A DNA stretch of 64,000 bases, taken from the NCBI GenBank assembly GCA_964636435.1, contig CAZWRS010000002.1, positions 296 through 64,295 on the forward strand, written 5' to 3'. Below the pieces are notes generated by a model. It was not told where the DNA came from and made no database searches. It worked only from the letters and a program-made list of their open reading frames with translations. A program made the position numbers and the translations under genes. The DNA comes from an uncultured Candidatus Saccharibacteria bacterium (GTDB lineage Bacteria > Patescibacteriota > Saccharimonadia > Saccharimonadales > JAGQNK01). Shown here in pieces: positions 1,557-62,457 of the stretch. Every line of letters begins with the position of its first letter. Position 1 is the first letter of the stretch.

Positions 1557-1662
1557 TTTTTTGTTTGGATTTTTTACTTAAGTGGTCTATGCAAAGTATA
1601 GTGCATATGCTAACATAACGGAAACTACTTTAAAAAAAGAGAACAAAAGAGGGAAGACAAAA

Positions 1663-3150
1663 ATGAAAACCAGAAGTTTCGTGATGCCAAAAATATGGCT
1701 GTACGTATTAACGGCAACTGTGCTCACTTTGAGCATAGCTACTGCCCCTATGACAGCCAGTGCGGCGGTATCGATTAGTATCGATAGCCCAGTTGCGGGC
1801 CAGAGTGTAGCTGGTGGGCCAGTTCAGATTGCCGGTACCGCTACAGCTGGACGGACGGTTGTGGTGTACAAAGGGGCGAGGCCGCTAGCCATGACGAGGG
1901 CTGACGGGTCAGGGCAGTGGCGTGTCGACGTGGCCAGCCTCGGTAACGGATCACATACATTGACCGCTAAGGTTATCGGTAATGATGGTTATGGCTATTT
2001 CAGCTCCACAAACGGCGCTTCGAGCGCCATGAACAGGCTGCGTTTGTCCGATAATGTTCTTAACCCCGGTGGCGATTGGCCAGTTGCGACGAGTGGTGCC
2101 CGGCTAGTGCCAACAGCTGTATCATCAGGATCTACGGTCGACTATCACTATATGCCAGGAGGCGCGGCTGCGCTGCCAGGTAAGTTTGACAAGAGTAATC
2201 CTGCTGATTTTGCTGACGTGAGCGGGTACCCTGCCAGTCCTGGTTTGTCGGGTGGTGGCTTTAGTCTGGATGGCACAAAGTGGTACGGCGTTAACAGCGC
2301 CCTTGATAACGTGTCAGTCGTTGATGTTGCGACCAACACCCAGGTAGGCACTATTGCGGTCGGTGGCACTCCTCAAACAGGTATCTTGGGGTCTGACGGA
2401 AGGTTTTATGTTGGCAACACCGATGACTCAACCATATCAGTTATTGATACCAATACTGACACGGTCGTGGCCACCCATACTATTACGGGGTGTGTTACGC
2501 CTGGCAGTCTCGGCTTTATGGCTTTCCCTAGTGGTGAGGACTATTTCTACGTCGCCTGTGCTCAAGATGGTCTTATTCTGAAGCTGCGTTTACAGGATGG
2601 CTCAGTGCTGGACACGTTAGACATTAGCGCGACGCATGGGATGATTAGCTCTATGTTCCTCTCGCCGGATAGCAAGACGCTGTACGTCTCTGGGATGCTT
2701 ATGGAAGCAAACGGCAACAAGGTGGCTATCGTAGACGCCGCAACAGGCACAGTTAATAAGTCCGTCACGCTTTCCGGTGCGGCTATTGCTAGCAGCCTAA
2801 CACCAGATGGGCAGTATCTCTATGCAGCGACGCAAGGCGCTGGCTTCGATATGGAGAATATAGACGTCATTAGCACTGCTACTGGTGATATCGTCACCTC
2901 AATTGACACAACTAGCACAGGTCTCGCTGGCGTGGTTTCGTTCGATGAGCCAAGTACTGCCACTAGTGACGTAACCTTCACATTGGGTGCGGCAGCAGAT
3001 GGCGGGACAGATTCAGTGGTTAAAGACGGCGAGCTGGCAGCAACGGGCGTCAATCAGCGAATACTGATGCTAGGAGCTGCAGCGGTACTGGGCCTCACCC
3101 TGGTGGTTGCTCGCATCAGAAAAGTAATTCACTACCGTTTAAGCGCGTAG
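1663..3150 (+). CDS. Secreted surface protein: N-terminal Ig-like domain plus YVTN-type beta-propeller repeats, with C-terminal LAATG sortase-type sorting signal
   Basis: ATG at 1663 preceded by GGGAAG RBS. Signal peptide MKTRSFVMPKIWLYVLTATVLTLSIATAPMTASA. Repeats of type YVGNTDDSTISVIDTNT, LYVSGM, LYAATQG. C-terminus LAATG + hydrophobic stretch + RIRK tail. Confidence 0.6.
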   Translation: MKTRSFVMPKIWLYVLTATVLTLSIATAPMTASAAVSISIDSPVAGQSVAGGPVQIAGTATAGRTVVVYKGARPLAMTRADGSGQWRVDVASLGNGSHTLTAKVIGNDGYGYFSSTNGASSAMNRLRLSDNVLNPGGDWPVATSGARLVPTAVSSGSTVDYHYMPGGAAALPGKFDKSNPADFADVSGYPASPGLSGGGFSLDGTKWYGVNSALDNVSVVDVATNTQVGTIAVGGTPQTGILGSDGRFYVGNTDDSTISVIDTNTDTVVATHTITGCVTPGSLGFMAFPSGEDYFYVACAQDGLILKLRLQDGSVLDTLDISATHGMISSMFLSPDSKTLYVSGMLMEANGNKVAIVDAATGTVNKSVTLSGAAIASSLTPDGQYLYAATQGAGFDMENIDVISTATGDIVTSIDTTSTGLAGVVSFDEPSTATSDVTFTLGAAADGGTDSVVKDGELAATGVNQRILMLGAAAVLGLTLVVARIRKVIHYRLSA

Positions 3151-12804: not shown

Positions 12805-14400
12805 ATGAACCCCGAAAACCAAAACCCCGGCGGCCATCCCGGCCCCGTGCCGGGACAGCAGCCTCCATATCAGGGCCAGCCGTACAATCAACAGGCACCC
12901 GGGCCGCACGTCTATGGTCCGCAGCAGTTTAGCCCGTTCCCGCAAGGCGGCGGTGTGCCGCAGCAGGCACCACCTAAAAATAATCGGAAGCTCATCTGGG
13001 CGGTGATCGCCATGGCCGTTCTGCTGCTCATAACGATCGGTGTCGCGGTATTTTTGAACCTGCCAAAAGACGGTTCATCCGCTGGTGATGATTTCATCCG
13101 CAGCTACGATTCTCCGGTCGGCCTGCTGCCGGGTATGCAGTCGGCTGATATTAAGTCCGGCAAATTTAAGCTTCAGGCCAGTTATGTCGGTGATGGTAAT
13201 TTCCGGCGTGAGGGTGTGTTTGCGGTCAAGGATGGCAAGCTGCACTTCGCCATGGTCGCCGACGAAAAGCGGGTTAACGAGCTGGTCAAGCAGCTGTATG
13301 ACCGTCGTCAGGGCAATAAGGCCACCTTTGACGCAGCTAAGCACGGCGTGACGAGCAATTTTTCGTACGACTTTGCTTCGATGGCGGGGTATCACTATCT
13401 CTATGATCAGAATGGCGGTGCCATGAGCGGCTTTATCCCTGAAGTGGACGCTGCCAAAGCGGCGAGCAGCACTGATAAGCGATTCACACTCACAACTGCC
13501 TGTGACAGTGCACTGGCTGACGTTAAGCAAAAGCTAAACATGCATACCACTAGCCTGATGTTTGATATCCGTGACATGGGTGTTAACAAGCGGCAGGCCG
13601 AGATCAGCTTTGCCACCAGACAGAGCATCGACAAGGCGGTCCGGACATTCTTCGATAGCTGCTATGACCTTAACTATAAGCCTTCGGCTGCGCTCAAAAA
13701 GTTTGTTGATGGCCTAAAGCAAAATATTACTACAAGCCCAAAGTTTACCTACTGGCAAGAAGAGGGGGTGAGCTACCTGGAGGTCGCTCCGCCCGATGAG
13801 AACACGCCGTTTGGCGGCAAGCTGCACTTTGAGTTGACAGCCTTGAGTACCGCTCCCGCTGAACTGACCGGCGCCAACGCATCGTATATCGAGCGGCGCA
13901 ATCAGTTCGGGTTGGCCTACAGCCTGTGCCGCACCGACCCGATAATTACCCGTACCGTCCAGGACGGGTACCGCTTCCTGCGCGAAGACCCAGCCTATGA
14001 ATACCCCAGTGCCCGAGATTCGGGCTACTTCTGTACGACACTATCGACACCGCGTCAGTATACGCCGGCAAAGACTGTTTCGCTGCGTTCAACGACCGGC
14101 GCCATGGTACCGGTTACCGGTGCCGCTATTGACGGCCTGCGGGGCCTGCACGACCTGACCTATGAGATAGAGAAGTACAATCTGCAGAACAAGCGGTACC
14201 CCGGGCCCAATGAATTTCGTGACATGGCGAGCAGCAACATGGGAGATTTGACCCTGACGACCCAGACGGCTTTCGCTAGCCGCTCCCTGGTCTACACGGC
14301 ACTGCCTACGGAGTGTGAAGGTACCTGCAACGACTTTGTGCTGAGTTACGTGGCAGCACCGAACGTGCAAATCCAGCGCAGTACGTACCGGCCGCATTAA
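12805..14400 (+). CDS. Hypothetical membrane protein: Pro/Gln/Gly-rich cytoplasmic N-tail, one TM, about 440-aa extracytoplasmic domain of unknown family
   Basis: Long ORF. N-terminus PGGHPGPVPGQQPPYQGQPYNQQAPGP followed by TM LIWAVIAMAVLLLITIGVAVFL. Confidence 0.45.
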   Translation: MNPENQNPGGHPGPVPGQQPPYQGQPYNQQAPGPHVYGPQQFSPFPQGGGVPQQAPPKNNRKLIWAVIAMAVLLLITIGVAVFLNLPKDGSSAGDDFIRSYDSPVGLLPGMQSADIKSGKFKLQASYVGDGNFRREGVFAVKDGKLHFAMVADEKRVNELVKQLYDRRQGNKATFDAAKHGVTSNFSYDFASMAGYHYLYDQNGGAMSGFIPEVDAAKAASSTDKRFTLTTACDSALADVKQKLNMHTTSLMFDIRDMGVNKRQAEISFATRQSIDKAVRTFFDSCYDLNYKPSAALKKFVDGLKQNITTSPKFTYWQEEGVSYLEVAPPDENTPFGGKLHFELTALSTAPAELTGANASYIERRNQFGLAYSLCRTDPIITRTVQDGYRFLREDPAYEYPSARDSGYFCTTLSTPRQYTPAKTVSLRSTTGAMVPVTGAAIDGLRGLHDLTYEIEKYNLQNKRYPGPNEFRDMASSNMGDLTLTTQTAFASRSLVYTALPTECEGTCNDFVLSYVAAPNVQIQRSTYRPH

Positions 14401-14403
14401 TAC

Positions 14404-14432
14404 TAGACATAAGCGCTTTTATACGGTATAAT
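14404..14432 (+). promoter_or_regulatory. Candidate sigma70-type promoter for ssrA (TAGACA-17-TATAAT)
   Basis: TAGACA at 14404-14409 and TATAAT at 14427-14432 with a 17-nt spacer, about 36 nt upstream of the tmRNA 5' end. Confidence 0.4.
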
Positions 14433-14467
14433 ACTAGTGTCCTCTGCATAAGGGGAGTAGTAATTAT

Positions 14468-14851
14468 GGGGCTGAATTTAAGCTCGACGTTGGACTTTAA
14501 CAGTTAGATCAGCAGGCCGCTTGTCAGCGTTATAGACACCATTTAGTAGATGCAGAAAAAGTATCTCTTAGCGACATGGTTGACCGTGTTCTCGGTCGCC
14601 GTGAAGCACTCGCTTTCGCCTAAGAACGGAAGCTATCTTTGGTCCGACGCCAGATAGGATCATTAGATATCATATTTTCTGGATGCCCATACGCAAGTGT
14701 TCCATAGCGTATGGAAAGACTTTTGGAACAGTCTCTTCAGCCTTTTGTTCGTTTTTATGCTGAAGAGGTGAACGTAAACGGACTATGCCTGTAGGATAGA
14801 CTAACTTAGTTAAACTAGCGGACGCGGGGGCAGTACCCGCCAGCTCCACCA
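14468..14851 (+). ncRNA. ssrA: tmRNA (transfer-messenger RNA, SsrA)
   Basis: 5' GGGGCTGAATTTAAGCTCGACG matches the tmRNA acceptor/D-arm. 3' GGACGCGGGGGCAGTACCCGCCAGCTCCACCA matches the T-arm/acceptor with encoded CCA. An internal tag frame ends ...GRREALAFA then TAA at 14621-14623. Confidence 0.85.
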
Positions 14852-14856
14852 CAAGA

Positions 14857-14882
14857 GCATCAGAGAAATCTGGTGCTTTTTT
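14857..14882 (+). terminator. Rho-independent terminator after ssrA
   Basis: Hairpin GCATCAG-agaaat-CTGGTGC (one G-U pair) followed by TTTTTT. Confidence 0.5.
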
Positions 14883-14926
14883 GTTTGCCTTCTGACACCT
14901 CGTTTGGTCTATGGTAACCTACTTCT

Positions 14927-15684
14927 ATGCTCAATAATGCTCGAAACATTTACGTTGGGTTGAAATTGGGGGAAAATGCTAGCCCCAATATGTCGAAGAG
15001 GTTGTGGACTACGTTGATTTCTTTGAATTGTACGCAAGCCCCCAAGTCGACTATGCGTTTCTCGCAGGTATCAATAAACCCATCACTATCCATATCGCAC
15101 ATTTCGCCAGTGAGGTAAATTTTGCTAACCCAAGGCGAAGAGAGATCAATGAAGCGGCCTTTCGGCATGCCCTTGTCTTAGCTGATAAATTCAGTGCGAA
15201 AAAAATCATCTTTCATCCCGAGCTCAAAGAAGATGACGACTGCTCCGTAGACGTATTGGCGAACTTTATTACGAATCATTATGATGAAAGGCTGCATCTA
15301 GAAAATATGCCATTTTCGTCAGAGGGATTTGAGCATTTCGCTGCGAGCCCACCCGAAATCGAAGCTTTGCTAGATTTGCTTGGTGTAAAATTCTGTTTCG
15401 ATTTCGCGCACGCCTTCGAATTCCTAGAGTTTAGCGGCAAGGGTCCATCGGAAGTCGAGGAATTTTTAAAATTAAACCCGAGCCATTTTCATATTACCGA
15501 CACAGACCTCTCGGCAGTAGTGTTGCCGGGCTACAATGAGCAGCATATAAATTTTGGAGAAGGAACTATGGATCCGGTGCTTTGTCGGAACATGGTACCG
15601 CAAGGCGCTTGGGTTACTATTGAAACACCGATGAGCAGCACCAAGCAGCTGAAGGAAGTTCAATTTTATATGGTCACGAGTTAG
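14927..15684 (+). pseudogene. Xylose-isomerase-like TIM-barrel (sugar phosphate isomerase/epimerase/Endo IV superfamily) gene, apparently frameshifted at a C-run near 14983-14986
   Basis: N-terminal MLNNARNIYVGLKLGENASP lies in a different frame from the downstream body (IHIAHFASE, IIFHPE, LHLENMP, FCFDFAHAF, HFHITDTD, VTIETP). Joining them needs a -1 shift in the agCCCCaat run. The downstream frame alone has only a GTG start and lacks the N-terminal strand. Confidence 0.45.
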
Positions 15685-15952
15685 CAGCAGTTGCCTAGTT
15701 GCTAGTGCGGATACTTTTACATGTAAGCTATCGTTTCCTATCTAGGGAGCCTGGTTGACAACCCGATTCTAACCAGTACTGCTTATTAAGTTGTTTTACT
15801 ATATATAAATTAAGACTATTAAAGGGATAGTATGAAAAGTACTCAGGGTGGTTCCAGTGCCTTATTGTTGTGAAAAATATAAGTAGGCCGTATACTTAGT
15901 TCATCAACTAAACAGGAAACAACATGCAAGAAAAAAGCGGAAATTCCCTAAA

Positions 15953-16438
15953 GTGCGAGTCATTGCCCTCGTCGCCCTCTTTTTGATGATTATTGGCATC
16001 GCAGCTTACGGCTTTATGCAAATAAAGGGGCTGAAATCACGAGTCACAACTGTAGAGAACAGAGTAAACGAAACGTATGCATATAACGAAGAGGGTGCGG
16101 ATGAGGTTGTTGATATCAAGGTAGCTTCCCGCAGTACGAAGCAGCTACGTGTAGAGACCATTTATAGCATGGAAGGCACCCCGCAGTATGAGACAAAAAG
16201 CGTCGAGGAGTTCATCGTACGAATCAAAAACAATACCTCATGGCAGCACAATGACGGCGGGGCGATCCAGGCGAGAACCGCAAAGGGTGTTTTAATTTCC
16301 CCGGCAACCATTCATCCTGACGACTTTAAAGGTGAATCGACACTTTCTCTAGCACCAGGCGGTGAAGCCGAGATTACTCTGCATTTTGTCGCTCCGGAAG
16401 GTGAAAAAATTACAGACATCTATACTGATGGCAAATAA
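15953..16438 (+). CDS. Hypothetical N-terminally membrane-anchored protein
   Basis: GTG start. TM VIALVALFLMIIGIAAYGFM. AT-rich flanks. Confidence 0.4.
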   Translation: MRVIALVALFLMIIGIAAYGFMQIKGLKSRVTTVENRVNETYAYNEEGADEVVDIKVASRSTKQLRVETIYSMEGTPQYETKSVEEFIVRIKNNTSWQHNDGGAIQARTAKGVLISPATIHPDDFKGESTLSLAPGGEAEITLHFVAPEGEKITDIYTDGK

Positions 16439-16547
16439 GTTATCTAGTCTGCCGTGTAAGAAAAGCATCGACAATAGTACATAAAGATAATAATTTTACA
16501 TATAAACTATCTTTTCCCATTTAGAATTCTTTATGGAAGGAGAGGGT

Positions 16548-16637
16548 ATGGGAAAAAGTTTAGTACCGCGTTACTACATCCGCGATAGCGAAACTAATGA
16601 GCTTTGGTGCTTTGAAGCCGACGCGCTGGCTGGCTAG
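16548..16637 (+). CDS. 29-aa mini-ORF with a very strong Shine-Dalgarno sequence
   Basis: GGAAGGAGAGGG 5 nt upstream of ATG. Peptide MGKSLVPRYYIRDSETNELWCFEADALAG. Confidence 0.25.
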   Translation: MGKSLVPRYYIRDSETNELWCFEADALAG

Positions 16638-16846
16638 GGAGTTTTACGAAGCATGAGGCGTAAGTTTGACAGGTACTGCTGAGGGTCTGTCTTCGGGCGC
16701 AGCTTGAGATAACTCAGGTGATTGTCGACGAATGAAATTCTATTCTCTGGCCACTTATCGGTATTGGCTCGAAAGGCAGACTTGGTTACAAGTGCTGGAT
16801 TTCTTTCCATAGCCTCCAGAGCTGCGATAATCTCTTCTTCAGTCAT
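16634..16846 (-). CDS. Small hypothetical protein (70 aa)
   Basis: ORF MTEEEIIAALEAMERNPALVTKSAF... Preceded on the minus strand by a further short Lys-rich ORF. Confidence 0.35.
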   Translation of the reverse strand: MTEEEIIAALEAMERNPALVTKSAFRANTDKWPENRISFVDNHLSYLKLRPKTDPQQYLSNLRLMLRKTP

Positions 16847-16988
16847 AACTTAACTACTCCTTAATTTTCTTAGGCTTCTTTTTTTCTTTCTTACCTTTGT
16901 CCTTGGGTACCGCATTCTCCTCTTCGTCTCCTACCAGTATGCGCTTGTTCGGGCTAATAAGCTACTTGTTGTATGGTGCAGTGCTGCA

Positions 16989-17483
16989 ATGTTAGTGAGA
17001 AAACTTACAGTTTGTGAGAAGTTTCTGTCTACACTAGTTCTTATGACAATTACGAGTACGGCATTTCAGGACAATGATTTTATACCGGTAGAGTATGGAT
17101 ACGACGGACGCAATATTAATCCACCGCTAACCTTTTCTGAGGTGCCGACCGAGGCTAAAAGCTTGGTGCTGATAGTCGAGGATCCGGATGCGCCGAGCGG
17201 TACGTTTACGCACTGGATTCTTTATAATATTTCGCCAGCTACACTGCAAATTATGGAGGGCGAGCTGCCTATCGGTGCCGAGCAGGCGACGAATGACTAT
17301 GAGACCAGAGCGTATGGTGGACCGCGACCTCCGGACGGCACCCATCGCTACTTCTTCAAGCTCTTCGCGCTTGATACGAAACTGGATGAGGTGCAGCCGG
17401 AAGATAGACGTGAAGATGTCTACGAAGCCATGGACGGTCACATCATTGAGCAGGCTGAGCTCATCGGGCTGTACGCCGCGTAA
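16989..17483 (+). CDS. YbhB/YbcL family protein (PEBP, Raf kinase inhibitor-like)
   Basis: DPDAPSG and GTHRYFFKLFALD PEBP motifs. A more likely start is the internal ATG at 17043 (MTITSTAFQDNDFIP). Confidence 0.8.
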   Translation: MLVRKLTVCEKFLSTLVLMTITSTAFQDNDFIPVEYGYDGRNINPPLTFSEVPTEAKSLVLIVEDPDAPSGTFTHWILYNISPATLQIMEGELPIGAEQATNDYETRAYGGPRPPDGTHRYFFKLFALDTKLDEVQPEDRREDVYEAMDGHIIEQAELIGLYAA

Positions 17484-17647
17484 AGATTGACGCTTACGCT
17501 CAGACGTGCTACAATTAATTCTCATTGTTCTAAAAAGTGAATCCAGAGTTTGGGAATAGTTTTACTTCTAGGTTTCATTTAGTGACAATCGAAGTAATAA
17601 CTAAGGGCCGTTAATGCGGGCTCAGCAAACAAAAGGATTCTATTTTT

Positions 17648-18853
17648 ATGCCTTCATCATATAAAAAAACCACCAACCAGCGGTCGGCCTTTGGCGGCCG
17701 TCGTCGTACCTACCGATCGGCACCGCGCCAGAATAAACGCCGCCAGGGTCAGTACATCGACCCCATTAAATTTGTTAAAGCTGCCCGTCCGGTTGCCGCC
17801 GAGCAGTATGAGGCGACGCATCAGTTTGATGATTTTGACCTGCATGATCTACTTAAATCAAACCTAGCCACTAAGGGCTACCAGACACCGTCGCCCATCC
17901 AGGACCAGACGATCCCGGTCGCTTTGTGCGGCAGTGACGTTATTGGTATTGCTAACACCGGCACTGGTAAGACGGCCGCCTTTGCCCTGCCGGTCTTGCA
18001 CCAATTGATGTGTAATCCGCATACCAAGGCGCTGATCATTGCACCCACCCGTGAGCTTGCCCAACAGATCGAAGCCGAAATGAAGTCGATCGCCAAAGGG
18101 AGCGGCCTATTTGGTGTGCTGCTGATTGGCGGCACGAACATCGGTCCGCAGCTGCGTGACCTGCGGCTCAACCCCCGGGTTGTCATCGGTACCCCTGGCC
18201 GCATCAAGGATCATCTGGAGCGCGGTACGCTCAAGCTGCATCAATTCAGCTTCGCGGTGTTGGATGAAGTCGATCGCATGCTGGATATGGGCTTTTTGCC
18301 AGATGTGACGACGATCATGCAGCAGCTCCCCACAGAGCGTCAGTCCTTGTTCTTTTCGGCGACGATGGACAGTAAGGTGCAGATGCTGATCGAGAGCTTT
18401 TCTAATGAGCCCGTCGCCATCAAGCACAAGACCAGTGATACGAGCGACAACGTACACCAGGACGTGGTGCGTGTATCGGCCGCCCATGAAAAAATCGACA
18501 AACTGCACGATATCCTCATCAGGGAAGAGGTGGAGAAAATAATTGTCTTTGATGAAACGCAGCGTAGCGTTGAGCGGCTCAGTAATGAGCTGATCGCTCG
18601 CGGTTTCAAGGCTGATGCGATTCATGGCGGCAAAAATCAGGGCCAGCGCCAACGTGCGCTTAATCGCTTCAAGAAAAATGAGGTGACGATTCTCGTGGCT
18701 ACCGATGTCGCTGCCCGCGGTATCGACGTAAAAGACATTACCCATGTCATTAACTACAGCATTCCGCAGACCTACGACGATTATACGCACCGCATCGGCC
18801 GGGCCGGCCGGGCCGGCCGCATTGGTTACGCCCTGACGTTTATAAGTCACTAG
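17648..18853 (+). CDS. DEAD-box ATP-dependent RNA helicase
   Basis: Basic N-tail. Q-motif, Walker A ANTGTGKTAAF, and DEVD, SAT and HRIGRAGR motifs. Confidence 0.9.
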   Translation: MPSSYKKTTNQRSAFGGRRRTYRSAPRQNKRRQGQYIDPIKFVKAARPVAAEQYEATHQFDDFDLHDLLKSNLATKGYQTPSPIQDQTIPVALCGSDVIGIANTGTGKTAAFALPVLHQLMCNPHTKALIIAPTRELAQQIEAEMKSIAKGSGLFGVLLIGGTNIGPQLRDLRLNPRVVIGTPGRIKDHLERGTLKLHQFSFAVLDEVDRMLDMGFLPDVTTIMQQLPTERQSLFFSATMDSKVQMLIESFSNEPVAIKHKTSDTSDNVHQDVVRVSAAHEKIDKLHDILIREEVEKIIVFDETQRSVERLSNELIARGFKADAIHGGKNQGQRQRALNRFKKNEVTILVATDVAARGIDVKDITHVINYSIPQTYDDYTHRIGRAGRAGRIGYALTFISH

Positions 18854-20737: not shown

Positions 20738-21435
20738 ATGTATTATGCACATATGAGTAGGCCGCGGATAGCAATCATGGGATCGGGCGAAGGCTCTACA
20801 GCAGAAGTGTGCGCTCGGTCAGCCGCTGATGGAAGCTTGCGTGCAGACATTGGATTGGTCATATCTAATCAGCCGGCGTCGGGCATAATCAGGCGTGCGG
20901 AAAGCTGGGAGCACGTGTATGGGTTAGCAGTAGATTCGATCGTGATAAACCAGCATACGCACCCTGATGGGGCGCATGCCAGGGGGCAAACAGACAGTGA
21001 GTCACTGGCTATCGCCGAGAGCCTGGTAAAGCATGACATTGATCTCGTCCTGATGATGGGGTACTTGAGAATCGTAGGTAAGTTGCTACTGGAGAGGTAC
21101 GGCTTCGTCGCTGGCAGGCATAGTGATGTACGGCAGAGCCGGATGCTGAACTGGCATCCCGGTCCTTTGCCGCTGACTTCAAGCGAGTACGGTGTCGGGG
21201 CTGCCGAGAAAGTTCTGGATGCCTATATGGCCGGGAAGATCGTCAAATCTGCGTGTGTCTCGTGCATGCAGTTTCCGAATCAGTCGACGAAGGCCCAATT
21301 TGGCGGCTGCATGAGGTTCCGGTGCACGAGTACGACACACCCCAGAGTTTGTTTGGGCGTACACAAAAAATTGAAAAACAGTATTTAACACAAGACATCA
21401 ACGAGTTTATTGAGCTCCAGTCGGGGAGTCAGTAG
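20738..21435 (+). pseudogene. purN: PurN-like phosphoribosylglycinamide formyltransferase (formyl transferase family) interrupted by a -1 frameshift at a (GT)n tract near 21251-21260
   Basis: Frame A: RIAIMGSGEGS...LNWHPGPLP. Frame B from 21253: CLVHAVSESVDEGPIWRLHEVPVHEYDTPQSL, matching the TVHFVxEELDxGPIIxQxxVPVxxxDT core of PurN. No single frame covers both halves. Confidence 0.55.
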
Positions 21436-21495
21436 CAACTCGACTATGCGATAATACTCATAGACAAAACTTATGATACATGATATAATAAAAGA

Positions 21496-21729
21496 ATGAG
21501 AGCATGTATTGTGATGCTAGTGGTCGTGGCGGCCTTGGTGTTTGGCACTACTGGGACTGTTGCGGCGACTGACGAAGGCTTTGTACCGCAGACGTCATCG
21601 ACCAGAACGGATGTGCCGAGCCCGTCGGCCTTGCCGGCAGCCGGGGCGGGGCATGTGCTGGTAGTGTTTGCTGGGGCAACCGGTCTAGGTTTTGCCGGCC
21701 ATGTATGGCTTCGGCGTAAACGGGTATAA
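21496..21729 (+). CDS. 77-aa secreted mini-protein with C-terminal LPAAG sortase-type sorting signal
   Basis: Signal peptide MRACIVMLVVVAALVFGTTGTVAA. C-terminus LPAAG + hydrophobic segment + RRKRV. TATAAT at 21484-21489 only 6 nt before the ATG, with no SD, suggests a leaderless mRNA. Confidence 0.45.
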   Translation: MRACIVMLVVVAALVFGTTGTVAATDEGFVPQTSSTRTDVPSPSALPAAGAGHVLVVFAGATGLGFAGHVWLRRKRV

Positions 21730-21747
21730 GCCGGTAGGTTAATAAAA

Positions 21748-21774
21748 GCTCCGGCCACGAAGTGCGGCCGGAGC
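21748..21774. terminator. Bidirectional rho-independent terminator between convergent genes
   Basis: GCTCCGGCC-acgaagtgc-GGCCGGAGC hairpin followed by a T-rich tract. Confidence 0.6.
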
Positions 21775-21826
21775 AAGTCTTTTGGCTTAAAGTGTTTTAC
21801 CCAAATTGTTACCGAAGGACGAGCGG

Positions 21827-22624
21827 CTAGTAGGCGTATGCCATGCGCTCGCGGTGGTACTTTTCGTACGACTTGTAGTCTTTGTCCTTGCGGCTGTCGT
21901 TGTCTTTGTGGTCATAGCCGCGCTTGTGATCATCCGATTTATCGTAACGGACGAACTTGGCACGGTGGTGACTTGAGTGCTGTTTGTGGTCTTTGCGCTC
22001 GTAATTGACATGCTTGTATGACTTATTCCGGTTATGTGAGCGGTGCTTGTCATAGTCCTTCTTGTACTCAGACTTTTTGTCGTAGTCACGATAGTCTTTT
22101 TTGTAGTCTTTCTTTTTATGGCTGTCGCTATGCTTGTGATCGTAGTCCTTTTTCTTGTGATCATAGGACCTCTTGGAGACGTACTTGACGGGCTTCTTGT
22201 GATCGTGCCTGTCGTAGTCTTTGCTGTAGCGCTCCTTGTGATCGTGCTTCTTGTGGTCCTTTTTGTAATCCTTCTTATGCTCCCACTTGTTATCGTGATG
22301 CTTTACATATTTCTTCTTGTCATCGTCTTTTCGCCAGTGGTTCCAGCTGTACTTGTGGTCATGGTCTTTTTTGTGCTTGGACGATGGTCGCCACCACTTA
22401 TGGGAGTCATGTGACTTCTTGTACTGGTGGCTGTATGAGTTGGATTTATGATGCTTCCAATCCCTATCCTTGCGGTCCGAGCTTTTATGCTTCTTATGCT
22501 TATTGTGGTAGGAGTGGTGCTGCTTTTTGTACGAATCGTAGTTCGTGTACTTCGTGCGCGTACCCGGAATGTAGGCCATTCCTATGACGAGGGCACTTAC
22601 ACAGGTTGCTACAAAGTAATACAT
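21827..22624 (-). CDS. Secreted/anchored extremely His-, Lys-, Asp-, Tyr-rich low-complexity protein (repeats of KKDY / DHK / HKK type)
   Basis: Strong SD AAGGAGGT 9 nt upstream of ATG. N-terminal hydrophobic signal/anchor MYYFVATCVSALVIGMAYIPG, then about 240 aa dominated by H, K, D and Y. Terminator at 21748-21774 downstream. Confidence 0.55.
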   Translation of the reverse strand: MYYFVATCVSALVIGMAYIPGTRTKYTNYDSYKKQHHSYHNKHKKHKSSDRKDRDWKHHKSNSYSHQYKKSHDSHKWWRPSSKHKKDHDHKYSWNHWRKDDDKKKYVKHHDNKWEHKKDYKKDHKKHDHKERYSKDYDRHDHKKPVKYVSKRSYDHKKKDYDHKHSDSHKKKDYKKDYRDYDKKSEYKKDYDKHRSHNRNKSYKHVNYERKDHKQHSSHHRAKFVRYDKSDDHKRGYDHKDNDSRKDKDYKSYEKYHRERMAYAY

Positions 22625-22827
22625 ACTTGCTACGTACCTCCTTGAAAGTTAGATTTGAAAATTAAATGCATGTACCTCCTTTCAAAGTCGCTTTTTTCAT
22701 TTTTAGCAAGGGCTGATATTCGGTGCCATGAGTATTCTCACACTACTTCCTATAGAGAACAGTTTGTAATATTTATTACTTACGGCAGGTGTAAAATAGA
22801 AGGGTAGGGTAAGGTAAGGGGTTTGGT

Positions 22828-23985
22828 ATGAATAGACGAGCAATACTGGGTGCACTGCTCTTGCTGGTGGTGCCGGTGTTTGCATGGGTCGGGCTGGCGA
22901 ACGCGCAAACGTTCCGCTCCGGTGATACGACGACAGTAGACGCCAATGAAACGGTGAATAGTTCGCTGTTTGCCAGCGGCCGCACGATAGACATTGCTGG
23001 AACAGTTGACGGTGACGTGTACTGCGCGGGCATGAATATATTCGTCAGCGGTACCGTGCGCGGTGATGTGCTGTGTGCCGGACAAAATGTGACAGTATCG
23101 GGTGAAGTTGAGGGAGATGTGCGGCTGGCTGGCCAGTCAGTAACGGTCAGCGGCCAGGTGGATGGCAGTGCGTCAGTAGCAACGGCAGCTTTCTCGCTGG
23201 ATAGCCGGGCGCGCATTGCCCGTGACCTGAGCGTGGCGAGCAGTGATATGGCGCTCAATGGCCAGGTTGGCCGGGATGCAGCGTTAGCCGGCGCAAGTGC
23301 GGTGCTCAATAACCAGATTGGTCGGAACGTAAATGCGAGCGTTGAGAGCTTGCGATTGAATGGTCAGGCAGATATCGGTGGCGGGCTGTACTACACGAGC
23401 AGTCAGGATGCGCAGCTTGCTGAAGGGGCGCAGGTAGCTGGCGAGACGCGGCGATCTGAACCGCAGCAGACCAAGGGCACGTTTGAGGCGCCGTTCATTA
23501 CCGGCGCATCGTTCGTGTTTTACACCATAGCGGCGTTGCTCATATTGTCACTGGCGCTGGTGCTGCTGTTTCCGCGAGCTGTGCATGCAGTCACGAGCCA
23601 GGCGGTTGCGCAGCCGCTGAAGGTGCTGCTGGTAGGCTTTGTGGCGAGCCTGGCAGTGCCGGTGCTCATTATCGTGCTGCTGGTTACGGTGCTGGGTATT
23701 CCGCTGGCCTTGCTGCTTCTTGGTATTTGGCTCCTGATACTGTTTCTGGCTGGCCCTGTCTTTAGCTACTATATCGGTCGGCTGCTGCTTTCGGGCCAGC
23801 GTAACGTGATGCTGATTATGGCGCTCGGTGCACTGGTGGTGCTGCTCCTGCTGTTCATACCGATCCTCGGCTTCCTGGTGTGGTTGGCGGCAATGTGGAT
23901 GGGTGCTGGCATGATCCTGCTCGAGATTACCCGCCGGACCCCGCGTCCACGATATGAGATAGAGCCAGCTGCGGCGAAGCGGTAG
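22828..23985 (+). CDS. Membrane protein with cleavable signal peptide, extracytoplasmic bactofilin-like beta-helix repeat domain and C-terminal polytopic TM region
   Basis: Signal ...GLANA|QT. Repeats VSGTVRGDVLCAGQNVTVSGEVEGDVRLAGQSVTVSGQVDG resemble bactofilin (DUF583) repeats. There are 4-5 C-terminal TM helices. Confidence 0.5.
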   Translation: MNRRAILGALLLLVVPVFAWVGLANAQTFRSGDTTTVDANETVNSSLFASGRTIDIAGTVDGDVYCAGMNIFVSGTVRGDVLCAGQNVTVSGEVEGDVRLAGQSVTVSGQVDGSASVATAAFSLDSRARIARDLSVASSDMALNGQVGRDAALAGASAVLNNQIGRNVNASVESLRLNGQADIGGGLYYTSSQDAQLAEGAQVAGETRRSEPQQTKGTFEAPFITGASFVFYTIAALLILSLALVLLFPRAVHAVTSQAVAQPLKVLLVGFVASLAVPVLIIVLLVTVLGIPLALLLLGIWLLILFLAGPVFSYYIGRLLLSGQRNVMLIMALGALVVLLLLFIPILGFLVWLAAMWMGAGMILLEITRRTPRPRYEIEPAAAKR

Positions 23986-24054
23986 CTGCTGCCTAGTCAG
24001 AACATGCTATGCTATAACGAGCAATAGCAAGCCTCGAATAAACATTACAAAGAC

Positions 24055-25389
24055 ATGAAACTCAACCTGCGAAAAAGTAAATTACCGACTATGCCAGCGG
24101 TGCCGCCAGCGATTTCGAGCCTGGCGACGGTGCCGCTCAATATCTTGAATCCCAAGGTTTTGAGCGATGTCTTGTTTAAAAAAGACAAGCGCACAGAGCT
24201 GTTTTTAGAACTCTCGCCGCAGAAGCGGCTGCTGCTACTGCGTTCGTTGACACCGAGCGTGCGCAAGGAGATTCTGCTGCACGTACCTGATCAGGAGCTG
24301 GTGTCGCTGATTCACATGGTCGATCCGGATGAGGCGACGGATATGCTGCAGCTGCTGTCGGCAAAACGCCGCGAAAAGATTTTGCAGATGGTGAGTACCG
24401 AACTTAAGGATTCACTGAGTACGCTGCTGGCGTTCGACGCTGAGACCGCGGCCGGTCTGATGACCCTGGATTACATTCAGGTCAGCCCAGAAGACACGAT
24501 CGTCGAAGTGGCGAAGAAGTTTAAATCCCACGAAAAAGCGACCGGTCGGCCGCCAGTTATCCTGGTCATGAAAGAAGATGGCAAGTTGGCGGGCTTTTTG
24601 CCGGGCCACGAACTGGGCTTTAGTCGCACTACGGAAAAAATCGGTAAATATATTAAGCGCATGCCGTCAGTGTCGTACGCCGCGACGCACGATGAGGTGG
24701 TCCATATCTTCCATACCTACCCGCACTCCAAGGTGGCGGTCAAGAACGATGCCGGCAACGTCATAGGTATTATCTATTCCGATGACGTGCTCAATTTGCT
24801 GCAAGAGCAAGAAGCTTCCTCGCTGTACGACTTTGCAGGTATTCGTCAGGAGGAGAGTATTGCGGACAGCACCCGGCGCAAAGTTATCAACCGGCACCGC
24901 TGGCTGATCGTTAACGTCTTTACTGCCTTTTTGGTGGCTTTCACAGTCAGCCAGTTCGAAGGAATCCTCAGTCAGTACGTCTTGCTGGCGGCGTACATGC
25001 CTATTGTGGCCGGTATGGGCGGTAATGCGTCTATGCAGACGTTTGCGGTGCTGGTGCGCGGTATTTCGCTCGGACAGATCAGTCTCAGGACTGCCGGTCG
25101 GACGCTGCGTAACGAGCTGGGGGCCGGGTTTATTAACGGTATTATCATCGCGGTGATTGTGGCGAGCGTGGCTATCGTAATGAACGGCGATCTGCGGCTG
25201 GGCGCTGTGCTGGCGCTGGCAATGGTCATCAACCTGATGGTGGCGGCCTTTTTCGGTACCGTCGTGCCGCTGGTCATGAGCCGGCTCGGCAAAGACCCGG
25301 CGACCTCGGCATCTATTTTCATTACCACCGCGACCGATGTGCTGGGCTTCTTAGCTTTCCTCGGTTTGGCATCGCTCATTCTCATGTAA
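24055..25389 (+). CDS. mgtE: Magnesium transporter MgtE
   Basis: MgtE N-domain, CBS pair region and C-terminal TM domain (PIVAGMGGNASMQT). Confidence 0.85.
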   Translation: MKLNLRKSKLPTMPAVPPAISSLATVPLNILNPKVLSDVLFKKDKRTELFLELSPQKRLLLLRSLTPSVRKEILLHVPDQELVSLIHMVDPDEATDMLQLLSAKRREKILQMVSTELKDSLSTLLAFDAETAAGLMTLDYIQVSPEDTIVEVAKKFKSHEKATGRPPVILVMKEDGKLAGFLPGHELGFSRTTEKIGKYIKRMPSVSYAATHDEVVHIFHTYPHSKVAVKNDAGNVIGIIYSDDVLNLLQEQEASSLYDFAGIRQEESIADSTRRKVINRHRWLIVNVFTAFLVAFTVSQFEGILSQYVLLAAYMPIVAGMGGNASMQTFAVLVRGISLGQISLRTAGRTLRNELGAGFINGIIIAVIVASVAIVMNGDLRLGAVLALAMVINLMVAAFFGTVVPLVMSRLGKDPATSASIFITTATDVLGFLAFLGLASLILM

Positions 25390-59679: not shown

Positions 59680-61527
59680 GAAGCCGCCTGATTGATGGTT
59701 CCACAAGCTGGCATAAATGCCACCTTGTCGCAGTAACTCTTTATGGGATCCTTCTTCGACGATCTGCCCCTTGTCCATGACCAGGATGCGGTCCATCTGT
59801 TGGATGGTGCTTAAGCGGTGGGCAATGACGATAGCAGTGCGTCCTTCCATGAGCTTCCATAGTGCGTCTTGGATTAAGACCTCGCTCTCTGAATCCAGGG
59901 CGGACGTTGCTTCGTCCAGCACCAGTATGGGTGCGTTTTTCAGCATCGCCCGGGCAATGGCGACACGCTGGCGCTGGCCGCCAGATAGCTTGACGCCGCG
60001 TTCGCCAACGAGCGTATCGTACTTGTCTGGCAACGCTGCAATGAACTCGTGGGCGTGGGCCATTTTGGCAATGGCTGTTATCTGCCGCTTGGTTGCGTCC
60101 TTGGTGCCGTACGCTATGTTTTCGGCAATTGTTCGGTGAAACAGCATTGGCTCCTGCGGCACGTAAGCGATGTGTTTTCGAAGATCGGCCTGTCGTAGTT
60201 GCGTGATATTCTGGCCATCAATAAGTATTTCGCCGGACTGGATATCAGTGAAGCGCATGAGGAGCTTCGTGACTGTAGTTTTACCACCGCCGCTATGACC
60301 TACGAGGCCTACCTTCTCACCAGGCTTGATCCGTAAGTTCATGTTGCGAAACAGTGGCGCCTCCTTTTTATCGGCGTAGGCAAACGTAACATCCTTGAAT
60401 TCTATCTTGCCGTGTACGATCCGAGGCTTTTCTGGCACGGCCGGATCTGTAATGTCAGTATCCATATTCAGAATTGCAACCATATCGTACGCATCACCCA
60501 TGACTCGGTTGTAGTTACGCATAATATTATTCATCTCCCACAGTTGGCGAGCGATGGTGAACGTATAGGTTACGGCCAGGTAGACGGTAGCTATCGAGAT
60601 GATGTTGTGTTCTGCGGCCCAGACAGCAGCAATGAGTGCGGTTGTGTTCAGTAGGGCGATGAGGCCAGAATAGCCACTGCTGACAAGCAAAAAACCGCGC
60701 ATGGTATTGAGGCTTTTTTCGCGCCAAGTCCTAGTTTGTAGCGTAAGGCCCTCCAGCTCACGGGCTTCGCTGCCATGCGATTTGACAGCCATTATATTCG
60801 TGACTACATCGGCAACATAGCCAGTTACCGCTGTACTAGCCTGCGATTCTTGTTTACTGAGATCGGCCATGTGCCGTGAGCCAAAGTATACGATTAGGAT
60901 AAAAATGACAGCAATTATCAGTAGTACTACAGCATATTGCCAGAAGACAAAGCTTAGTATACTGACCGCTGCGATGATGCTAGTGATAGACGGGGTTAGT
61001 TGGAATATGACCGTATCCCAAAACCGCTCAAAGGCGCTAGTTAGCTTATTGGTCTGTGACACAAGAGAGCCGCCAAATCGGTTGGCGTGAAAGTTCATAC
61101 TATGACTAGTAAGTTTAGTGAAGATCTTTTGATACAAATCTCGTTGAGCTGCAGTTTCAAATGTCCAAGCGAGATAGAGATTGATACGCCAGCCAATAAG
61201 CTCACCCCATAGCTGCGCAAGTATATACAGTGCAATAAGCGTCCAGCTACTAGATAAAGTAATTGAACCTGCTTGTAGCTGCTCCAAGATCCGAGAAATA
61301 ATAAAAGGACCAGCAAATGCACTAGCCGTAACAGCGAGTGCTGCACCGATAATTGCACCAAGCACGCGCATGCGATAACGCATGGCGGTGCGCCAGAATA
61401 GTCGCAAAGTTTCCTTTTGCACAACAAGTTCCTCGTAAGAGTTAATATTTTTATTTGACGCTATAGGATCGGCACGTCCGATCGTTGGCGTATTTAGAGG
61501 ATTGGGCTTACAAAAAGAATGAGCCAA
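59668..61527 (-). CDS. ABC transporter, fused permease/ATP-binding exporter (MsbA-like)
   Basis: Six-TM N-domain. Walker A GHSGGGKTT, signature LSGGQRQRVAIARAML and Walker B ILVLDEATSALD. Confidence 0.85.
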   Translation of the reverse strand: MAHSFCKPNPLNTPTIGRADPIASNKNINSYEELVVQKETLRLFWRTAMRYRMRVLGAIIGAALAVTASAFAGPFIISRILEQLQAGSITLSSSWTLIALYILAQLWGELIGWRINLYLAWTFETAAQRDLYQKIFTKLTSHSMNFHANRFGGSLVSQTNKLTSAFERFWDTVIFQLTPSITSIIAAVSILSFVFWQYAVVLLIIAVIFILIVYFGSRHMADLSKQESQASTAVTGYVADVVTNIMAVKSHGSEARELEGLTLQTRTWREKSLNTMRGFLLVSSGYSGLIALLNTTALIAAVWAAEHNIISIATVYLAVTYTFTIARQLWEMNNIMRNYNRVMGDAYDMVAILNMDTDITDPAVPEKPRIVHGKIEFKDVTFAYADKKEAPLFRNMNLRIKPGEKVGLVGHSGGGKTTVTKLLMRFTDIQSGEILIDGQNITQLRQADLRKHIAYVPQEPMLFHRTIAENIAYGTKDATKRQITAIAKMAHAHEFIAALPDKYDTLVGERGVKLSGGQRQRVAIARAMLKNAPILVLDEATSALDSESEVLIQDALWKLMEGRTAIVIAHRLSTIQQMDRILVMDKGQIVEEGSHKELLRQGGIYASLWNHQSGGFLEQ

Positions 61528-61566
61528 TCATAATAATCAAACCATAATACGGTATAATGTACGTCG

Positions 61567-62457
61567 ATGCAAAAAGTTATTCTCTATTACAAATTCGTGC
61601 CGGTGAAAGATCCGGAGATGACCATGCGCTGGCAACGTGAGTTGTGTACGCGCCTGAACCTTAAGGGCCGGGTTCTAATATCTGATCACGGCATTAATGG
61701 TACGCTCGGTGGCGACCTAGAAGACTTGAAGCGCTACAAGCGGGAGATGAACAAATCTGTTGTGTTTAAGGGCATTGTTTATAAGTGGAGTGATGGCACC
61801 GGTGAGGAGTTCCCGAAGCTTAAAATCAAGGTTAAGCCGGAGCTGGTCGCGCTCAATGCGGCTGACGAGATAATTGTGTCTGAAAAGGGTATCGAAAACG
61901 GTGGCAAGCACTTGAGGCCGAAAGACGTGCATAAGCTCCTTAAAGAGCGCGGTGACGAAGTCGTATTCTTTGATGGCCGGAACAAGTACGAGGCTGCTAT
62001 CGGTAAGTTTAAGGGCGCAATTGTACCGGATGTCGATACGTCACATGATTTTGCTAAAGAGCTCGAAGATCCGAAGTACGAGGCGATTAAGGACAAGCCG
62101 ATCGTCACCTACTGTACGGGCGGCGTGCGCTGTGAGGTAATTAGCGCCATGATGAAGAACCGTGGCTTCAAAGAGGTGTACCAGATAGATGGCGGTATTG
62201 TGAAGTATGGGGAGACGTACGGTGATGACGGCCAGTGGGAAGGCAAGTTGCATATCTTCGATGACCGTATGCAGATGCAGTTTAGTGACAAGGCCAAGGA
62301 TATAGGCGCCTGTACGCACTGCGACGGCCCAACCAGCCGGTATATAAACTGCGATAATGTTGCATGCAACAGATTGGTCCTTGTCTGCAGAAATTGCGAC
62401 AAAAAATCAAAATGCGAAAAGTGTATTAGCGAAAGACTATTGACAAAAAAGCAATAA
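61567..62457 (+). CDS. trhO: Rhodanese-domain tRNA uridine(34) hydroxylase TrhO (UPF0176/YceA family)
   Basis: Rhodanese active-site CTGGVRCE; C-terminal Cys cluster CTHCDGP...CDNVACNRL...CRNCDKKSKCEKC. Confidence 0.75.
   Translation: MQKVILYYKFVPVKDPEMTMRWQRELCTRLNLKGRVLISDHGINGTLGGDLEDLKRYKREMNKSVVFKGIVYKWSDGTGEEFPKLKIKVKPELVALNAADEIIVSEKGIENGGKHLRPKDVHKLLKERGDEVVFFDGRNKYEAAIGKFKGAIVPDVDTSHDFAKELEDPKYEAIKDKPIVTYCTGGVRCEVISAMMKNRGFKEVYQIDGGIVKYGETYGDDGQWEGKLHIFDDRMQMQFSDKAKDIGACTHCDGPTSRYINCDNVACNRLVLVCRNCDKKSKCEKCISERLLTKKQ

Follow-up and report, generated by a model that had tools for sequence, protein, structure and literature searches.

The window analysed here is a 64-kb stretch of a Candidatus Saccharibacteria (TM7) genome, belonging to a species recovered on 17 contigs from several sequencing runs, and its positions 21496-23985 hold three open reading frames (ORFs). 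They encode, in this order, a short protein with an LPAAG motif (the mini-protein), a low-complexity protein rich in Lys, His, Asp and Tyr (the His-rich protein), and a 385-amino-acid (aa) membrane protein with a bactofilin-type beta-helix. A sequence-only reading had taken the three genes for a possible co-regulated cell-surface module, perhaps an undescribed system. That observation is largely correct: its reading of the topology was right, and its claims of novelty and of a three-gene system were wrong. The third gene is probably a Saccharibacteria member of the described HalB-type halofilin family, defined by Bactofilin plus DUF8173, whose product would act as an extracytoplasmic scaffold, independently of the two neighbouring genes. 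We refer to it below as the HalB-like gene.

The three ORFs exist (21496-21729 on the plus strand, 21827-22624 on the minus strand and 22828-23985 on the plus strand), and all of them are real coding genes, since the differences within an invariant block of the mini-protein gene are all synonymous, a relative retains the open His-rich reading frame and the HalB-like gene has hundreds of homologs. As had also been noticed, Pfam reveals no enzymatic domain in any of the three products, the match being limited to Bactofilin in the 385-aa protein. None of the three proteins could be placed in a family by searches of NCBIfam, PHROGs and PADLOC, the sole NCBIfam match being a sub-threshold LPXTG anchor, and no phage or defence model matched the mini-protein or the His-rich protein. 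Rfam identified no RNA element within positions 21300-24150. The HalB-like gene is organised as follows.

22828-23985, plus strand: HalB-like gene, 385 aa (ORF list, hundreds of homologs).
22828-22905, plus strand: signal peptide, residues 1-26, with MNRR, a hydrophobic core and an ANA/Q cut site (sequence, 29 homologs, AlphaFold2).
22906-23457, plus strand: bactofilin-type right-handed beta-helix, residues 27-210, predicted to be extracytoplasmic (Pfam, AlphaFold2, charge pattern).
23458-23484, plus strand: short, poorly conserved linker of low pLDDT (predicted local distance difference test), residues 211-219 (AlphaFold2, alignment).
23485-23937, plus strand: DUF8173 membrane domain, residues 220-370 (AlphaFold2, precomputed Pfam).
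23938-23985, plus strand: basic tail TPRPRYEIEPAAAKR, predicted to be cytoplasmic, and stop codon (sequence, charge pattern).

The Bactofilin domain (PF04519) was found in this protein with 39.4 bits against a Pfam cut-off of 27.9, and the precomputed records of the identical protein and of its homologs list both PF26514 (DUF8173) and PF04519. Topology, conservation and structure prediction were based on 29 homologs. The AlphaFold2 model obtained from them (pLDDT 88) contains a helix at residues 3-25, a single-stranded beta-helix at 27-210, the linker at 211-219 and six helices at 220-370. The beta-helix has ~10 windings of 17 residues, of which GDVYCAGMNIFVSGTVR, GDVLCAGQNVTVSGEVE and GDVRLAGQSVTVSGQVD are examples, and conservation is highest in windings 2-4, the membrane-distal ones. 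The helices of the membrane domain span residues 220-247, 249-261, 263-286, 290-320, 327-342 and 345-370, and a model of this domain alone reached a pLDDT of 90.6 and a predicted template modeling (pTM) score of 0.81. The sequence-only reading had given the C-terminal domain four to five transmembrane (TM) helices; it is indeed multi-pass, and the model sets the number at precisely five, with the short helix 249-261 lying on the cytoplasmic side. The DUF8173 domain also carries a GIPLAL motif and invariant P, G, W and R residues.

Across the 29 homologs, the N-terminus has a mean of 2.8 K+R, the two predicted cytoplasmic loops average 1.8 and 2.6, and the C-terminal tail 5.8, whereas both short outer loops have a mean of 0.0. 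The A-x-A site of the signal peptide and A26 are invariant in the same homologs, and a Q follows the cut site. Because of this positive-inside pattern and of the conserved A-x-A/Q signal peptide, the beta-helix is predicted to lie outside the cytoplasmic membrane. Pfam, the AlphaFold2 model and the charge pattern thus agree with what had been read from the letters, namely a signal peptide, then a bactofilin-type beta-helix with a predicted location outside the membrane, then a multi-pass TM domain.

Exactly two cysteines are invariant, Cys66 (23023-23025) and Cys83 (23074-23076). They lie 17 residues apart (C-x16-C), at the same repeat position of adjacent windings, a position occupied by Leu in winding 4. 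The pair is present in 116/120 Saccharibacteria homologs, and 115/145 proteins from the halobacterial search have no Cys at all. This arrangement in an exported domain suggests a stacked pair forming a disulfide or a tight core contact. The C-x16-C pair on adjacent windings and the short linker are features specific to this clade.

The PDB sequence search with the HalB-like protein returned a single, weak match, the Caulobacter bactofilin BacA, and Foldseek matched the protein to Thermus TtBac with a TM-score to target of 0.62. These canonical bactofilins (BacA, PDB 2N3D; TtBac, PDB 6RIA/6RIB) share the PF04519 beta-helix repeat with the window protein, but they are cytoplasmic, have ~6 windings and neither a signal peptide nor a TM domain, and are attached to the membrane by an N-terminal targeting peptide. 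With its signal peptide and five TM helices, the window protein is not a canonical cytoplasmic bactofilin.

This combination of domains had been taken as atypical and undescribed, yet the same architecture has been published as that of the halofilin HalB family. In HalB (halofilin B, HVO_1237/D4GX31) of Haloferax volcanii, a Sec/signal peptidase I (SPI) signal peptide precedes an extracellular bactofilin domain at the N-terminus; five TM helices follow, together with a shorter sixth one, and the tail is cytoplasmic. HaloTag labelling placed the bactofilin domain of HalB outside the cell (Curtis et al., PNAS 2024; PMC11459167). The family counts 2,304 UniProt proteins; bacteria contribute 1,813 of these, and candidate phyla are among the sources. 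The beta-helix reaches up to 10 windings, and the number of TM helices is invariant (PMC11459167). The isolated beta-helix domain of HalB (bHalB) polymerises in vitro; in H. volcanii, HalB forms static foci at negative curvature of the outer surface, its deletion causes shape defects, and removal of the surface layer (S-layer) results in extensive HalB polymerisation (PMC11459167).

The homology of the HalB-like protein to the archaeal family covers its full length. By hhalign, the Saccharibacteria profile matched the profile of halobacterial proteins carrying Bactofilin and DUF8173 with a probability of 100% (E 6.6e-41, 338 columns), in an alignment spanning the signal peptide, the beta-helix and the TM domain. 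The halobacterial family (PF04519 + PF26514) is chromosomal and widespread, and was reached through a Halobaculum plasmid protein found by tblastn. The same Saccharibacteria profile matched a Halobaculum protein (E 4e-20) and a cyanobacterial protein from Acaryochloris (E 1.9e-33). A search with the TM domain alone gave 2,344 cluster representatives at 50% identity, and nearly all of the full-length matches carry this domain at the C-terminus of proteins of ~380 aa. Within the Saccharibacteria the HalB-like gene gave 293 species-level hits, and the best 80 loci come almost wholly from records bearing that name. The window protein has a signal peptide, the PF04519 beta-helix with a predicted outside location, five TM helices and a short helix after an unstructured segment, and homology to the archaeal family. 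It thus resembles HalB in the order of its parts, from Sec signal peptide through outer bactofilin-type beta-helix, unstructured linker and DUF8173 to the cytoplasmic tail.

Several points weigh against this assignment, or against carrying the archaeal model over to the window. Membership is deduced from homology to the halobacterial Bactofilin and DUF8173 family and from agreement with the published description of HVO_1237. The window protein has ~10 windings instead of the 5 of H. volcanii HalB, its linker is short (~10 residues) where that of HalB is long, and its clade has an invariant C-x16-C pair where the halobacterial proteins are mostly Cys-free. Its cytoplasmic tail is short as well. 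The hosts also differ, one being a Saccharibacterium and the other an archaeon enclosed by an S-layer only; Saccharibacteria presumably have a peptidoglycan wall. Since the number of windings, the linker, the Cys pair and the presumed envelope all differ, the S-layer-related model of HalB cannot be carried over as it stands. Finally, the polymerisation and localisation data of the family come from HalB of H. volcanii, the member characterised by experiment.

On balance, we favour the following mechanism. The HalB-like protein would be exported by Sec and its signal peptide cut after ANA, which would leave a rod-like beta-helix of ~10 windings and roughly 5 nm on the cytoplasmic membrane, at its outer face. 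The linker of ~10 residues would tie this rod to the five-TM DUF8173 anchor, with the short basic tail in the cytoplasm. So far this follows the sequence and the model; by analogy with H. volcanii HalB, the rods would most likely self-associate through the conserved membrane-distal windings, and the protein would then serve as a membrane-anchored extracytoplasmic scaffold stabilising or organising the envelope between membrane and wall. The Cys66/Cys83 stack probably locks or stabilises the exported helix.

Another reading would make the exposed beta-helix an adhesin with which this epibiont binds the surface of its host bacterium. The matches that could be cited for such a role are generic beta-helix matches, and a ~5 nm rod on a 10-residue linker is unlikely to span the cell wall. 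Moreover, the family also occurs in free-living archaea, in cyanobacteria and in Bacillota, and the high sequence conservation of the HalB-like protein is atypical for adhesins. We consider attachment to the host the least probable of the explanations discussed here.

Relatives in which the beta-helix and DUF8173 module is fused to an N-terminal zf-HC2 anti-sigma domain call for more attention, for they point to sensing and so speak against a purely structural role. The genes of these fusions overlap the end of an extracytoplasmic function (ECF) sigma-factor gene, and one fusion could be aligned to the Saccharibacteria profile, beginning at the membrane anchor and reaching the end of the TM domain (E 7e-37, 32% identity). 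By likeness to the extracytoplasmic part of such anti-sigma factors, the outer beta-helix and DUF8173 of the window protein could monitor the state of the wall or membrane and signal through a separate partner in Saccharibacteria. The window protein, however, has no anti-sigma or other output domain, its basic tail being only ~15 residues long, and neither sigma factors nor regulators recur as conserved neighbours in the 80 related loci. HalB, the only characterised member of the family, behaves as a scaffold (PMC11459167). An envelope-state sensor thus seems to us unlikely, although clearly more plausible than an adhesin. We prefer the scaffold over envelope sensing because the window protein lacks an output domain, without regarding it as proven.

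The fusion proteins themselves (P0138 and P0148, encoded at L088 3001-4620 and L090 3001-4611 in relatives outside the window) have a cytoplasmic N-terminal anti-sigma domain and lie in an ECF sigma operon; in place of that domain the window protein carries a cleavable signal peptide. Sigma factors are not mentioned in the main text of the halofilin paper (PMC11459167). The window protein was also considered as a zf-HC2 anti-sigma factor in its own right, and this was rejected, as it has no PF13490 match and its neighbours are the His-rich gene and MgtE.

The remaining features of the locus belong to the two other genes and to the regions between them.

21461-21489, plus strand: promoter-like site of the mini-protein gene, TAGACA-17-TATAAT, near-consensus (11/12) and TG-extended.
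21496-21729, plus strand: mini-protein gene, 77 aa (71 aa from an alternative ATG at 21514).
21748-21774, no strand assigned: hairpin with an 11-bp GC-rich stem between the convergent mini-protein and His-rich genes, followed on the minus strand by TTTTATT.
21827-22624, minus strand: Lys/His/Asp/Tyr-rich gene, 265 aa, low complexity (ORF list, relative).
22625-22827, no strand assigned: divergent intergenic region of 203 bp between the His-rich and HalB-like genes.
22766-22779, no strand assigned: palindrome GTAATATTTATTAC, 62 nt upstream of the ATG of the HalB-like gene.

The start at 21484 given earlier for the mini-protein gene falls in the -10 hexamer of its promoter-like site, and the ORF begins at 21496; gene callers on other assemblies begin it at 21514 (71 aa). 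Since the -10 hexamer ends 6 nt 5' of the ATG at 21496, the mRNA may be leaderless or have a very short leader. The protein consists of a signal peptide (MR, a hydrophobic stretch and a VAA/T cut site), a mature part of ~25 residues with an invariant core, and a candidate tripartite sorting tail in which LPAAG, with A in place of T, is followed by AGHVLVVFAGATGLGFAGHVW (21 hydrophobic residues) and LRRKRV. We compared it within three genus-level genomes, those of the window species and of its two closest relatives (79% and 75% identity in the HalB-like protein). The 13-residue block PQTSSTRTDVPSP (residues 31-43) is invariant in all three, and its 8-10 nucleotide differences per pair are all synonymous, a sign that a mature peptide of ~25 residues, lacking any folded domain, is strongly constrained. 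The gene is specific to the genus. A scan of metagenomes for the mini-protein gave a single locus, identical to a known relative.

LPAAG was reproduced in 4 further independent assemblies, and the relatives have LPATG or MPETG. Against the curated cut-off of 15.9 bits of the LPXTG anchor model TIGR01167, the window mini-protein scored 13.8 bits and its nearest relative 14.3 bits, and the third homolog gave no match. The mini-protein shares with LPXTG sortase substrates a signal peptide and a P..G motif, as well as ~20 hydrophobic residues and a tail that is basic; it differs from them in its LPAAG motif, its sub-cut-off score and a mature part of only ~25 residues without a folded domain. We consider it a probable, atypical sortase substrate. 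No ORF with a TLxTC sortase motif was found within the 64-kb window. A second candidate sortase substrate is encoded at 1582-3150 (plus strand), a YncE-like beta-propeller of 522 aa ending in LAATG, a hydrophobic segment and RIRK.

The His-rich protein is composed of 23% K, 13.6% D, 13.6% H and 11.7% Y. Its gene was seen solely in the window species and its nearest relative, where the ORF is kept open at 50% aa identity with 64 synonymous-only codon differences; a strong GGAGGT Shine-Dalgarno site precedes it. The N-terminal hydrophobic anchor MYYFVATCVSALVIGMAYIPG is invariant, and the 21-residue N-terminus is identical in the relative. All three products had been supposed to carry secretion signals, which held for the mini-protein (MR, VAA/T) and the beta-helix protein (MNRR, ANA/Q). 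The hydrophobic N-terminus of the His-rich protein lacks a basic n-region, and TRTKY directly follows the hydrophobic segment; by the positive-inside rule the protein would probably be N-out/C-in, with its charged part in the cytoplasm and not secreted. It is thus probably a membrane-anchored disordered protein facing the cytoplasm. In the minus-strand sense, the sequence TTTCAAGGAGGTAC occurs twice 5' of the gene (22636-22650 and 22672-22686), a duplication kept in the nearest relative, and the distal copy precedes an ORF of only 13 codons.

Could the three genes nevertheless form one co-regulated surface or appendage system? They are adjacent and in the same order in the nearest relative (79% identity), and the His-rich and HalB-like genes diverge from a shared region, which had been correctly delimited at 22625-22827 (203 bp). 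To the same side belongs the adjacency of the mini-protein and HalB-like genes, kept in all three genus-level genomes, so that these two may have a lineage-specific functional link. ORFs flanking the HalB-like gene were called at the best 80 of the 293 species-level Saccharibacteria hits. The complete trio is present in 1 of these 80 loci and missing from the other 79; one more locus has the mini-protein and HalB-like genes. Mini-protein homologs are thus found near the HalB-like gene in 2 loci and His-rich homologs in 1, which are the two closest relatives (79% and 75% identity). No compositionally similar His-rich gene recurs beside the HalB-like gene in the other loci, and ORFs with sorting signals lie within 4 kb of it in only a handful. 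All-against-all clustering of the neighbours in 81 loci (the window plus the 80) gave a best cluster present in 17/81, at scattered positions, and no partner at a fixed position. The genes are in this sense unlinked in related genomes, the outcome that the sequence-only reading itself had named as refuting a module. Since BipA, MgtE and trehalase genes are conserved around the locus in the same three genomes, their shared gene order is ordinary genus-level synteny.

The regulatory features do not support co-regulation either. The hairpin at 21748-21774 is the terminator of the His-rich gene, given the TTTTATT that follows it on the minus strand, and probably serves the mini-protein gene as well. 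The separate promoter-like site of the mini-protein gene and this layout of the terminator hairpin, common to the mini-protein and His-rich genes, indicate that the three genes are three separate transcription units. Upstream of the HalB-like gene, a 40-bp element containing GTAATATTTATTAC is conserved in the three genus-level genomes, including the 75%-identity relative that has no His-rich gene, and so it can be assigned to the HalB-like gene. The element is not repeated elsewhere in the 64-kb window and is not conserved beyond the genus, so that no regulon can be defined from it. With a His-rich protein that probably faces the cytoplasm in addition, a single three-gene system is very improbable, and we regard the mini-protein and His-rich genes as independent, genus-restricted units that are chance neighbours of the HalB-like gene.

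Other features of these neighbourhoods were recorded. In one distant relative, an ORF of 99 aa rich in K, E, D and W (L043 7493-7792, minus strand) is divergent from the HalB-like gene and lies 197 bp upstream of it, a position like that of the His-rich gene, to which it has no homology. A link to Mg2+ transport was considered in view of the MgtE gene downstream in the window and of a 50%-identity relative (L003/L009) whose HalB-like gene has CorA two genes upstream and MgtC ~5 kb downstream. It was rejected, as the association is not general and the MgtE adjacency is limited to the three genus-level genomes. A PurN-like formyltransferase gene (20738-21388, plus strand) stands where the two nearest relatives have a YdjM-family gene (L001 4177-4683 and L002 5048-5545); in one assembly of the window species (L093) it is broken into two ORFs. 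Farther away, a transfer-messenger RNA (tmRNA) gene lies at 14468-14851 (plus strand; Rfam, 87.9 bits). The GC content of positions 14001-18000, around this gene, and 60001-62000 is 0.46-0.48 compared with ~0.54, and these two stretches are possibly integrated or foreign DNA.

A family described in 2024 accounts for most of what the main gene of the locus shows, and this gene therefore does not represent a new system. Our literature search found no paper connecting Saccharibacteria with bactofilins, and in Candidatus Saccharibacteria the HalB-type outward-facing bactofilins make up a large clade of high conservation that counts at least 293 species hits. Three features could help to show what the bacterial majority of the HalB family does: the invariant Cys pair, the conservation of the membrane-distal windings and the fusions to anti-sigma domains in related bacteria. 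As a more speculative and only tentatively held extension, the Saccharibacteria HalB clade, with its ~10 windings, stacked Cys pair and short tether, may be widespread in these ultrasmall epibionts as an extracytoplasmic, exoskeletal polymer or as a mechanosensor of the envelope, and the anti-sigma fusions found elsewhere would show the same module coupling the state of the envelope to gene expression. If this were true, it would be the first bacterial bactofilin acting outside the membrane.

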